DNA of 64,000 nt from Candidatus Borrarchaeum weybense (GTDB lineage: Archaea > Asgardarchaeota > Sifarchaeia > Borrarchaeales > Borrarchaeaceae), in contig JAHQJS010000004.1 of the NCBI GenBank assembly GCA_019057385.1, forward strand, positions 1 to 64,000, in the 5' to 3' direction. This document shows positions 11,359 to 23,714 of this stretch, piece after piece; the first letter of the stretch is position 1, and the number at the start of each line of letters is the position of its first letter. Both the position numbers and the translations under genes were made by a program. The notes under the pieces were generated by a model that saw only the letters and a program-made list of their open reading frames with translations, ran no database searches and had not been told where the DNA came from.

Positions 11359-11481
11359 TAATAAAACTTCTGATCTCAAAACTGAAGCAAAAAATTAAAT
11401 AATTAGACATTCTTTTACGATGTGTTATTCCCTTGTCTAGAGATGTTTGATTCTGCACTCCATTATTGTGCGGGGGTCAAT

Positions 11482-11680
11482 GCGGGGGTTGGTAGTGCAT
11501 AATTGCATTATCACCCATGGCCGAGCGGTCAAAGGCGATGGACGTGAAAACAGATCGTTTTCGGGTCGAAGCTCAAGATCGATTAATAATAACGCCGATG
11601 AAAGACCCATTGACGTAGGTCTTCGTGGGTTCGAATTTCCGTGGCGATAAATCGCTAGAACGAAAATCCCATCCCCCGCA
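11482..11680 (+). tRNA. tRNA-Leu(CAA) with four predicted introns: 8/9 (11490-11518), 30/31 (11542-11570), 37/38 (11578-11604), 59/60 (11636-11666)
   Basis: Joined exons give an 83-nt class II cloverleaf: GCGGGGG/CCCCCGC acceptor, GCC/GGC D stem, ATGGG/CCCAT anticodon stem with loop CT-CAA-GA, long variable arm, GTGGG-TTCGAAT-CCCAT, discriminator A; each insert folds as a hairpin with BHB-type junctions. Confidence 0.85.
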
Positions 11681-17006: not shown

Positions 17007-19478
17007 GTGCATTCATTGGCAAAATTAAAACCAAAAATCAAAGCGAAGCGATGGAGTCCGGAAATTGAAGAAGAAATAGTGGAACTTTGGGAAAAGGAAT
17101 CAACATTCGCATATGATCGCGATTCAAATAAGACATTTTTTAGTGTGGACACGCCACCGCCGTATGCTAGTGGCACCCCACACATGGGTTTCGGCGTTCA
17201 TTATGCGCAGATCGATATGGTGGCTAGATATTCTCGAATGAAAAATCAAGAAGTTATATTTCCTATGGGCGTGGATCGAAATGGTCTTCCAATCGAAGTG
17301 CAAACGGAAAAGGAGTATGGTATTTCCATGCGTGAGACTCCTCGTGACAAATTCATTGACTTATGTAGACAATTGCTTGACAAGTATGAGGATCAAATAA
17401 TAAATCTGGCAAAAAGACTTGGTTTAAGCTGTTTTTCGTTTGCTAAAGATCAAGTGTATCGCACAGATGATCCAAAGTATCGGCAACTTACCCAGGCGAC
17501 TTTTGTGAAGTTATGGAAAGATGGCTTGGTCTATGAGGCGAAACGACCAAACAATTGGTGTAAGACTTGCGGTACAACAATTGCGGATGCAGAAATCGAA
17601 TATAAGGAGATCGAATCTACTTTAAGCTATATTAAATTCAGAGTTGCGGAAACAGATCAGGATCTTATTATAGCTACAACTAGACCAGAACTTTTAGCGG
17701 CATGTAAAGCTGTTTTGGTGCATCCACTTGATCAGAGGTATGAAAATATTCACAATATGACTGCAATAGTCCCAATTTACGATACAAAAGTTCCGATAAT
17801 TCCTCATCTTGAAGCAAAAATGGAATTTGGAACAGGAGCCGTTATGATTTGTTCATATGGAGACTACACTGATGTGCGGCTCTTCCGGGAACTTCGCTTA
17901 GAACCTGTCGAGGCTATATCTCCAGAAGGAAAAATGACTTCCGCAGCTGTAGAACTTGAAGGATTAACAGCTAAGGAAGCTCAAGAAAAAATTGTAGAAA
18001 TGCTCAAAGCAAAAGATCTTCTAGAAAAAAGTGAACTCACACTACATCGGACACCCATCTGTTGGCGTTCAAAAGATATCGTTGAGTTTATCTCAATGCC
18101 TGAGTACTATTTAAAACAAGAGGAATTTGTCCCTGAATTACTTGATTTAGCGGAACAAATGACTTGGCATCCCATAACAGCAAAACAATATTGGTTGAAT
18201 TGGCTGAATTCTGTTTCAATAGATTGGCCAGTTAGCCGCCGCAGATATTATGGTACGGAATTGCCACTTTACTACTGTAATTCATGTGGAGAACCTATTA
18301 TTGCTGAGACAAACAAATATATCCAGCCATGGAGAGATCCTCCGCCCTTTGATATGTGTCCGCATTGTAATGCATCAGAAGGCTTTCGTGGAGAAGATCG
18401 TACCTTTGATACATGGATGGATTCGGCTATAAGTCCTTTATACATCACTGGATACCTACGGGATTCTGAATTATTTCAGAAAGCATTCCCGTGCGGCGTT
18501 AGACCACAAGGAAAAGATATTATTCGCACATGGTTTCATTATACAATGCTACGGGTATATCAGCTTACCAAACAACCGGCATTTAAGAACGCCTGGATCA
18601 GCGGTATGGTCGTCGATGAACATGGTGAAGCAATGCACAAATCTAAAGGAAATATTGTTAATCCAGTGCCATTAATTGAGAAGTATGGATCCGACGCAAT
18701 ACGAATGTGGGGTTCTGTTGAATCATCACTGGGATCTGATATACGCTATTCGACAGAAAGACTAGAAGGAGCTTTCAAATTCATAACAAAATTGTGGAAT
18801 ATTGCTCGTTTCGTTTCATCTTTTCCAACAGTTGAAGCTAATGGAAACTTTACTCTCACATCTACAGACAAGCTTATTCTTTCAGAGTTAAACAAAGTCA
18901 TAAAAGAAGCAAAAAGCGCTGATGAATTTGATTTCCATGGTACTGCAGTCAAGGTAAGGTCATTTATATGGAATATATTCGCCGATCATTTCATTGAGCT
19001 CGTAAAGTCACGTTGTTATAACCGTGATCAAAAATTTAGCGAAGAGAAAATGCGAGGTGCGTGGTTTACGCTCCATACTGTGCTCCAAACTGTCTTAAAG
19101 CTTCTTGCTCCCATTATCCCCTTTGTTACTGAAAAAATCTGGAGAGAAATCTATTCACCTGAGACAAGCATTCATACACAATCATACCCGAAAGAGAACT
19201 CTGAGTGGGAAGATGAACTTGGTCTTCTTTCAGAACCCTTATTTGCCCTCAATAGCACGATTTGGAAATTCAAGAAAGATGAAAAACAATCACTACGAGC
19301 GCCCATCCCAGAACTTTGGATATCTAAAGAATTTGAACCCTTCAAAAATGATTTACAATACATGCATAGCGTTGAGATACTTAGATTCGGAAACCCTACT
19401 TCAGTAGACCAGCTTGAGTCACGAGAACTCGATACAGCAAATTTATCTTCGAAAAAATTATGGATTTCAAAGCTCTAG
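17007..19478 (+). CDS. valS: Valyl-tRNA synthetase (archaeal type)
   Basis: DTPPPY, HMGF (HIGH variant), ATTRPE, FGTGAVM, DWPVSRRRYYG, DTWMDS, AMHKS (KMSKS variant). Confidence 0.93.
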   Translation: MHSLAKLKPKIKAKRWSPEIEEEIVELWEKESTFAYDRDSNKTFFSVDTPPPYASGTPHMGFGVHYAQIDMVARYSRMKNQEVIFPMGVDRNGLPIEVQTEKEYGISMRETPRDKFIDLCRQLLDKYEDQIINLAKRLGLSCFSFAKDQVYRTDDPKYRQLTQATFVKLWKDGLVYEAKRPNNWCKTCGTTIADAEIEYKEIESTLSYIKFRVAETDQDLIIATTRPELLAACKAVLVHPLDQRYENIHNMTAIVPIYDTKVPIIPHLEAKMEFGTGAVMICSYGDYTDVRLFRELRLEPVEAISPEGKMTSAAVELEGLTAKEAQEKIVEMLKAKDLLEKSELTLHRTPICWRSKDIVEFISMPEYYLKQEEFVPELLDLAEQMTWHPITAKQYWLNWLNSVSIDWPVSRRRYYGTELPLYYCNSCGEPIIAETNKYIQPWRDPPPFDMCPHCNASEGFRGEDRTFDTWMDSAISPLYITGYLRDSELFQKAFPCGVRPQGKDIIRTWFHYTMLRVYQLTKQPAFKNAWISGMVVDEHGEAMHKSKGNIVNPVPLIEKYGSDAIRMWGSVESSLGSDIRYSTERLEGAFKFITKLWNIARFVSSFPTVEANGNFTLTSTDKLILSELNKVIKEAKSADEFDFHGTAVKVRSFIWNIFADHFIELVKSRCYNRDQKFSEEKMRGAWFTLHTVLQTVLKLLAPIIPFVTEKIWREIYSPETSIHTQSYPKENSEWEDELGLLSEPLFALNSTIWKFKKDEKQSLRAPIPELWISKEFEPFKNDLQYMHSVEILRFGNPTSVDQLESRELDTANLSSKKLWISKL

Positions 19479-19528
19479 CCTCTGTAATGAGATATAAATC
19501 TACTAGGACCTATCTCACCCGCTCAAAA

Positions 19529-20143
19529 CTAAGATTTTTTCTTCTTAGCGGCTTTTGCCTCTTCATTTTTTTTCGCTTTCATCACTACCAATGATCCAAT
19601 GATTCCCCCAATAATGAAAGGTATTGCTAACATAAGTCCCATTAATTCATAAGGTAGCAAGAAAGTGGGAGGCGCATGTTGCGGATTTGTCGGTAGAGTG
19701 CGTTCATAGTATGCTACGGCTGCAGTTATCCATGTAAACGCCCATGCCAAGAATGTTGCAATGCCAAGCCATCCTTTGACACGCCCATATAAGAACATTT
19801 TGTTGAAATACGATAGGTATGTTTTAGCGACGATGATAACAAGAATCACAAACGAGCCAAAGGTATGAATAACATAGAGCGGGTCGGGTAACTCCATTGG
19901 TGGCACATTTTCAGTGACTGTCCCAGTAAATCACATTAAACCTGCAAATAAACCAAGAAAATAGAATACTGTAGCAAAACTCCCGAAGGCGCGATGTGAA
20001 CGAAAAAGCGCGTCATTTCCCCTAATTAAAAACAGCCTATTCTTAATATAAGCTGCGTAGTAACTGGTAAAAACTTGAGAGGTCGCATACAGCATGCCTA
20101 ACATAGTTACGATGGTATTATATTCAGCGATTTCGATTGCTAT
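19529..20143 (-). pseudogene. Membrane protein (DUF6529/cytochrome b561-like) interrupted by an in-frame TGA at 19931-19933
   Basis: Frame continues upstream of the 125-aa ORF: ...HRAFGSFATVFYFLGLFAGLM*FTGTVTENVPP...IHTFG; SD GGAGG precedes ATA (20141-20143) rather than ATG. Confidence 0.65.
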
Positions 20144-23609: not shown

Positions 23610-23714
23610 GGGCCGATAGCTCAGTTTGGAAGAGCGCCGCGCTCGCACCGCGGAGGCCGCGGGTTCAAAGGACATGGATCTTATCCAAGCCTGGAATTCC
23701 CGCTCGGTCCACCA
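23610..23714 (+). tRNA. tRNA-Ala(CGC) with a non-canonical 59/60 intron (23670-23697); CCA encoded
   Basis: GGGCCGA/TCGGTCC acceptor with G3:U70, CCGCG-CTCGCAC-CGCGG anticodon arm, BHB TTCA/TGGA with AA|G and AT|T bulges. Confidence 0.93.

Follow-up and report, generated by a model that had tools for sequence, protein, structure and literature searches.

The tRNA-Leu(CAA) gene of Candidatus Borrarchaeum weybense lies at positions 11482-11680 (+) of the window, by which we mean the whole stretch of 64,000 nucleotides that was analysed. Direct reading of the sequence divides the gene into five exons of 8, 23, 7, 31 and 14 nt and four introns of 29, 29, 27 and 31 nt, the introns being located at tRNA positions 8/9, 30/31, 37/38 and 59/60. 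An RsmB-PUA gene adjoins it, and a short duplicate of its 5' acceptor strand, referred to below as the leader copy, is found just upstream. The features of the locus, with the evidence for each given in brackets where it extends beyond the reading of the motif itself, are listed here.

11468..11477, + strand: leader copy of the 5' acceptor strand, GTGCGGGGGT (sequence; conserved across the genus)
11482..11489, + strand: exon 1, tRNA positions 1-8, the acceptor 5' strand and U8 (ARAGORN, orthologs)
11490..11518, + strand: intron 1 at 8/9, 29 nt, with a 9-bp hairpin and an ACCC that pairs with G3-G6
11519..11541, + strand: exon 2, positions 9-30, the D arm and the 5' strand of the anticodon stem (ARAGORN, orthologs)
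11542..11570, + strand: intron 2 at 30/31, 29 nt, with central helix CGAT/GTCG and a 6-bp internal hairpin
11571..11577, + strand: exon 3, positions 31-37, with the anticodon CAA inside (ARAGORN)
11578..11604, + strand: intron 3 at the canonical site 37/38, 27 nt, with central helix CTCA/TGAA
11605..11635, + strand: exon 4, positions 38-59, spanning the 3' anticodon stem, the long variable arm, the T stem 5' strand and most of the T loop (ARAGORN, orthologs)
11636..11666, + strand: intron 4 at 59/60, 31 nt, a canonical bulge-helix-bulge with TTCG/CGAA and the T stem as outer helix
11667..11680, + strand: exon 5, positions 60-73, the end of the T arm, the acceptor 3' strand and A73 (sequence, ARAGORN)

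An earlier note on this DNA had claimed that five exons join here into a clean leucine cloverleaf, and its coordinates and lengths proved exact: the joined exons form an 83-nt sequence that ARAGORN calls as tRNA-Leu(CAA). In the spliced sequence the 7-bp acceptor stem (GCGGGGG/CCCCCGC) is fully paired, the variable arm is long and the discriminator is A73, which, like the anticodon CAA, are traits of class II leucine tRNAs. It also has a T arm, an anticodon stem of ATGGG/CCCAT and a D arm that contains G13.A22, a pair typical of leucine tRNAs. The 3' CCA is not encoded. As the same note had expected, standard annotation would overlook the gene, for the uninterrupted genomic sequence elicits no call from ARAGORN and none from Rfam at gathering thresholds, and a tRNA model run over the whole genome did not find it. 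We considered and ruled out a split or permuted tRNA, as the five exons are collinear and lie on one strand within 199 nt. The presence of an interrupted tRNA-Leu(CAA) gene at this locus is confirmed. The window contains a second tRNA gene, read by eye as Ala(CGC), at 23610-23711 (+); it has an insert of ~30 nt in the T loop and is likewise missed by ARAGORN and Rfam.

We evaluated the four inserts with a bulge-helix-bulge (BHB) rule that specifies a 4-bp central helix, 3-nt bulges on opposite strands with cleavage after the second bulge nucleotide, and flanking helices. Two of the central helices are fully paired, namely that at 30/31 (CGAT/GTCG, 4 of 4 pairs including one G.U) and that at 59/60 (TTCG/CGAA, 4 of 4), and the other two have three of four pairs each, with one G.A in the 8/9 motif (GGGG/ACCC) and one C.A in the 37/38 motif (CTCA/TGAA). 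The inner helices of introns 1 to 4 comprise 9, 1 (followed by the 6-bp hairpin), 3 and 3 bp, and the outer helices 2, 2, 1 and 5 bp, the last being the T stem. When each insert was shuffled 20,000 times, a central and inner helix as good as those observed arose in 0, 0.65%, 0.13% and 0.15% of shuffles for introns 1 to 4, respectively, and when the boundaries were slid from -5 to +5 nt, register 0 was the best for all four. All of the pairings in the earlier description of four inserts with BHB geometry were reproduced, and all four inserts outperform both controls. ViennaRNA put the probability of the 8/9 helix in its 3-nt-bulge register near 0 and preferred a slipped register; its energy model does not favour 3-nt bulges and so cannot confirm an exact BHB register. 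With one mismatch each in two of the central helices, and with outer helices of just 2 bp at 8/9 and 30/31, these are relaxed forms of the BHB, and we assume that they would be cleaved.

The geometry of the two introns that flank the anticodon supports an order of removal. The 30/31 and 37/38 motifs overlap, since the former draws on A27 and U28 for its central helix and on C32 and U33 for its short outer helix, so that the 30/31 intron would most likely be removed first. The earlier note had argued for such ordered splicing, and its argument is borne out by the outer helix of the 37/38 motif, which grows from 1 to 7 bp in the RNA that lacks the 30/31 insert. Ordered removal of adjacent introns has already been described, for genes of Thermoproteales and in connection with tRNAscan-SE 2.0 (PMC8450103).

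To place the gene in a comparative setting, we surveyed related metagenome-assembled genomes (MAGs), as the earlier note had proposed. In addition to the genome under study (G000), these were Ca. Borrarchaeota archaeon Yap75.bin3.45 (G001), Promethearchaeota archaeon DZ3M.366 (G002), Ca. Sifarchaeum marinoarchaea CR_Bin_042_1 (G003), Ca. Borrarchaeum yapensis Yap2000.bin9.141 (G004) and G005, the single representative of the sister family. An orthologous Leu(CAA) gene is present in the same neighbourhood in a further four members of the Ca. Borrarchaeum / Ca. Sifarchaeum genus, giving five species in total. The syntenic neighbour gene shares 88-91% identity with its counterparts in Ca. Borrarchaeum yapensis, Ca. 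Sifarchaeum marinoarchaea and related MAGs, which places the locus in an Asgard host, and the Leu(CAA) sequences of these MAGs match those of G001-G004 exactly. Across the five species the exons are nearly invariant and the introns diverge, with substitutions that respect pairing: the T-stem pair 49:65 is G.U, G-C or A-U, the intron-2 hairpin changes from A-U to G-C, the intron-1 stem from G.U to G-C, and the central helix of intron 2 from G-C to G.U. At 59/60 the species carry three intron sequences unrelated to one another, all of which end in CGAAAA, the segment that supplies the central helix and bulge.

Inserts are also cleanly present or absent among the orthologs, and their boundaries are thereby defined independently of the motif rule. 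In G001 the 59/60 intron is exactly absent and a 30-nt intron in the variable arm has been added, and in G003 the 59/60 and variable-arm introns are both present, for a total of five. Independent assemblies from four studies contain Leu(CAA) with introns, and no intron-less form was present among them. A 2584-nt contig from the soil metagenome run X8 carries the gene with an extra 30-nt variable-arm insert at window position 11619 and is a five-intron allele resembling that of Ca. Sifarchaeum marinoarchaea. In the sister family, Leu(CAA) of G005 has a homologous 8/9 intron with central helix GGGG/CCCC and a perfect 37/38 helix; our reconstruction of that gene contains four introns (8/9, D loop, 28/29 and 37/38) and is accepted by ARAGORN, though it is tentative, as its centre was resolved by hand and it keeps an A.C mismatch in the anticodon stem.

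A census of the host genome, performed as a scan for a T arm plus acceptor stem, returned 44 archaeal-type tRNA genes. Of these, 42 are longer than 89 nt, with many above 160 nt; thus ~95% of the tRNA genes are interrupted. Five genes share the leucine acceptor stem (CAA, TAA, TAG, GAG and CAG), each with three or four inserts, all with one at 59/60, and with a common variable-arm pattern. Whether this is the genome's sole Leu(CAA) gene had been raised in the earlier note, and it is: there is a single CAA gene among the five and no separate intact copy. Since Leu(TAA) could in principle read UUG, the Leu(CAA) gene may nevertheless be non-essential. The 59/60 intron of Leu(CAA) (11636-11666) is identical at 27 of 30 positions to the 59/60 intron of Leu(CAG) (G000 C3:86637-86666, -); in sister species the Leu(CAA) 59/60 introns are unrelated to it, and one type resembles an intron of Leu(TAG). 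This pattern suggests gene conversion or intron exchange between leucine isoacceptor genes, which share identical 3' halves. Introns 1-3 have no further copy within the genome, and being single-copy they led us to reject a mobile-element origin of the introns.

One part of the bin departs from this picture. The tRNA genes of contig C1 of G000 (179 kb, 39% GC) are all compact, intron-less and tightly clustered (for example at C1:107-253, 19436-19895, 74513-74748 and 161784-161928), and the contig encodes its own RtcB (C1:13917-15008). Being unlike the rest of the bin in these respects, contig C1 is probably foreign DNA, from a virus or another organism. The contamination of the bin is estimated at 7%.

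The earlier note had reasoned that such splicing requires an endonuclease of broad specificity, and the genome does encode an EndA of the two-subunit type with the broad-specificity loop. It contains two proteins matching PF01974/PF02778, an EndA catalytic subunit and a non-catalytic paralog. The catalytic (alpha) subunit, encoded at C4:663429-664055, has both Pfam domains, matches best the catalytic subunits of the heterotetrameric crenarchaeal enzymes of A. pernix, S. tokodaii and P. aerophilum, retains the catalytic histidine when aligned to 3P1Z_B, and aligns without gaps through the Crenarchaea-specific loop (CSL), with lysines at the positions of both K44 and R46 of the A. pernix (APE) enzyme. 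In A. pernix EndA, the loop and K44 confer broad specificity (PMC3241643), and the L1/CSL loop is known in Asgard EndA (PMC5829648). In the paralog (beta), which lies at C5:195817-196488, alanine replaces the catalytic histidine. An RtcB ligase is encoded at C5:145777-147087.

We turn now to the leader copy. The sequence at 11468-11477 can form a 9-bp helix with a stretch that comprises the 3' acceptor strand, A73 and the first base of the trailer. Among the 44 archaeal-type tRNA genes, only Leu(CAA) and the following two lack a D arm directly after position 9.

C4:189761-189660, - strand: Thr(CGT), with an 8/9 intron (T-arm/acceptor scan)
C5:330965-331068, + strand: His(GTG), with an 8/9 intron; reading it at 9/10 gives a perfect motif

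In G000 the 8/9 motif of Thr(CGT) has two of four central pairs (CTCG versus AGTG) and an inner helix of 6 bp, and that of Freyarchaeia Thr(CGT) is a perfect CTCG/CGAG, which we confirmed on the genome sequence. A leader copy is situated 4-9 nt upstream of all three 8/9-intron genes, as compared with one of the 41 others (Fisher's exact test, about 3e-4). An exact 7-mer scan for leader duplicates with a perfect 3' complement returned, among tRNAs, only Leu(CAA); its stringency excludes the imperfect copies of Thr and His, which were caught by the T-arm/acceptor scan. In a further five Asgard genomes, no additional 8/9 introns were found using truncated Infernal alignments, and the single candidate, in G029, was rejected as a T-loop intron. 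The 80 nt upstream of the 44 genes, when aligned, display no clear positional TATA signal. Asn(GTT) (G000 C5:329258-329169, -), which has no 8/9 intron, is preceded at 7 nt by a copy, GTCGTCG, that is recognized if G.U pairs are tolerated; this weak copy may be a chance match or the relic of a lost intron.

The leader copies of Leu and Thr are kept in all five species, and that of His is kept in G004, the sole other member of the genus in which the His gene was found. Copies also precede the sister-family Leu(CAA) and the Freyarchaeia Thr(CGT), and none precedes Thr(CGT) in G005 or in Odinarchaeum, where that gene is intron-less. The substitutions that set a copy apart from the genuine strand preserve or improve its pairing to the 3' strand, with a C-G in place of a U.G in Thr and an A-U or G.U in His. 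Partition-function folding of the Leu precursor gave a probability of 0.68 for the leader copy on the 3' strand versus 0.32 for the genuine acceptor stem; for the four precursors folded, the leader copy occupied the 3' strand with a probability of 0.68-0.98, and destroying the copy in silico restored the genuine acceptor stem to about 1.0. The competition between the 8/9 BHB and the acceptor stem that the earlier note had predicted is likewise seen in folding. We set aside the idea that the upstream copy is the true exon 1, the inner helix of the motif being contiguous only with the downstream copy; the Leu product would be identical in either case.

From these observations we infer a route by which the gene would be processed. 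Transcription would produce a precursor of about 200 nt plus a leader, on the assumption that the leader copy is transcribed. Each short intron would fold into a BHB or a slightly relaxed version of it and would be cut by the two-subunit endonuclease, that is, catalytic EndA with its Crenarchaea-type loop and the non-catalytic paralog, after which RtcB would join the exons, RNase P and 3' processing enzymes would trim the ends, and CCA would be added. Since the T stem serves as its outer helix, the 59/60 motif should be able to form immediately, and the 30/31 intron would most likely leave ahead of the 37/38 intron. The 8/9 motif would need G3-G6 of the acceptor 5' strand. In the precursor, the leader copy could hold the 3' acceptor strand and keep the genuine 5' strand free until intron 1 is gone. 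The leader copy would then be a stand-in strand, an element acting in cis to help the RNA fold for archaeal tRNA splicing at 8/9 introns, a model to which we give an even chance. For the larger proposition, that this is a single functional tRNA-Leu(CAA) gene with four introns that is processed as outlined, the role of the leader copy being left evenly balanced within it, our confidence is high.

The alternatives concern either the leader copy or the gene itself. It is quite possible, if somewhat short of an even chance, that the gene is real and the leader copies are neutral relics, mutational footprints of 8/9 intron gain or of short-repeat slippage, either of which would have duplicated the gene's initial 8 nt. 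The Thr(CGT) leaders of G001 and G003 (L040 G001:C24 and L041 G003:C2) fit such a history, since each contains a further tandem repeat of a unit that runs from the leader copy through the spacer and exon 1 into the 5' part of the 8/9 intron, as does the identity of the Thr leader copy, GCCCCGGT, with the genuine 5' strand of the intron-less G005 Thr(CGT), and the weak copy at Asn(GTT) has no 8/9 intron beside it. The Thr(CGT) upstream region in G001 and G003 is, in its own right, prone to tandem duplication. Neutral relics are harder to reconcile with the retention of the Leu(CAA) copy in five species and the sister family, with the recurrence of a copy for three different tRNAs and in Freyarchaeia, with substitutions that keep or improve pairing to the 3' strand, and with a placement from which, in Leu and in Freyarchaeia Thr, the helix can always be extended to take in position 73 and the first base of the trailer.

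That the gene is a tRNA pseudogene in decay, with inserts that are always retained, would accord with the failure of ARAGORN and Rfam to detect it, yet it is the genome's only CAA gene, its stems are intact, its exons are near-invariant in five species with compensatory changes in stems, the sister family has kept its 8/9 intron, and about 95% of the tRNA genes around it are interrupted in the same way. We consider this reading very improbable. The idea that tRNA-like fragments lie together here by chance, or through an error of assembly, has nothing in its favour except the shortness of exons 1 and 3, and is refuted by the shuffle and slide controls, by contigs from four independent studies and by four named MAGs, such that its remaining probability is negligible. 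It is the comparative data, in the form of orthologs, compensatory changes and exact presence or absence of inserts, that exclude both decay and chance.

The gene is a well-documented case of the extreme tRNA gene fragmentation that has lately come to light in Asgard archaea. A single gene is found, in one genus, with four introns, with a different four, or with five, and so provides clean gain and loss pairs for the study of intron origin, along with a 59/60 intron sequence apparently swapped between leucine isoacceptor genes. As the CAA isoacceptor goes unannotated by standard finders, such genomes would seem to lack that tRNA. The leader copy just upstream may be an undescribed splicing helper; if functional, it would show how an intron can be tolerated even though its motif competes with the tRNA's most stable helix.

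How unusual is this gene among known systems? Three introns per gene was the reported maximum until 2021 (PMC4033280, PMC8450103), and the novelty that the earlier note attached to four introns and to the 8/9 site is by now outdated. In Atabeyarchaeia and Freyarchaeia, 92-95% of tRNA genes are interrupted (Valentin-Alvarado et al. 2024, PMC11291895), and Supplementary Data 4 of that study contains tRNAs with four introns (Arg-TCT, Ile2-CAT and Leu-GAG of Freyarchaeia and Trp-CCA of Atabeyarchaeia) and a Freyarchaeia Thr(CGT) whose first intron starts after nucleotide 8. According to an October 2026 preprint (10.64898/2026.10.13.758758), Asgard genes have up to five inserts, Borrarchaeaceae average 2.12 inserts per gene, half of which are missed by tRNAscan-SE, Borrarchaeaceae and Sifarchaeaceae are named as high-burden families, and most Asgard genomes have two EndA paralogs. 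These published four-intron and 8/9 examples remove the claim to novelty and leave the reality of the gene unaffected: Leu(CAA) is a new example, not a new kind, of heavily interrupted Asgard tRNA gene. A leader copy of the acceptor strand is not described in the literature searched, which included the available parts of PMC11291895 and the 2026 preprint.

The closest parallel is with Freyarchaeia and Atabeyarchaeia, which share with the present genome an Asgard host, several short introns at non-canonical sites in most genes, two EndA paralogs, and many inserts missed by standard annotation. The gene studied here belongs to another class (a Sifarchaeia-type genus), and the numbers of Leu(CAA) introns differ, with two in Freyarchaeia and three in Atabeyarchaeia versus four here and five in Ca. 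Sifarchaeum marinoarchaea.

A second parallel is provided by Thermoproteales, whose multi-intron tRNA genes were reportedly characterized in Sugahara 2008 and Fujishima 2010. As in the present case, these genes have BHB introns at many positions and an (alpha-beta)2 EndA with the CSL/L1 loop (PMC4033280, PMC8450103), adjacent introns are removed sequentially, and related introns are shared between genes. They differ in belonging to the phylum Thermoproteota, in having at most three introns and in being mostly detected by tRNAscan-SE; with an Asgard host and four introns, Leu(CAA) falls outside this class. For 8/9 introns in Thermoproteales, our literature search returned no explicit statement.

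Finally, the leader copy has a partial counterpart in the split and permuted tRNAs of Nanoarchaeum equitans, Caldivirga and Cyanidioschyzon merolae, where flanks that are not part of the tRNA pair with tRNA or partner sequence in the precursor and thereby allow processing by EndA. In those tRNAs the flanks build the BHB itself, whereas the leader copy of Leu(CAA) would lie outside any BHB and would only occupy the 3' acceptor strand.
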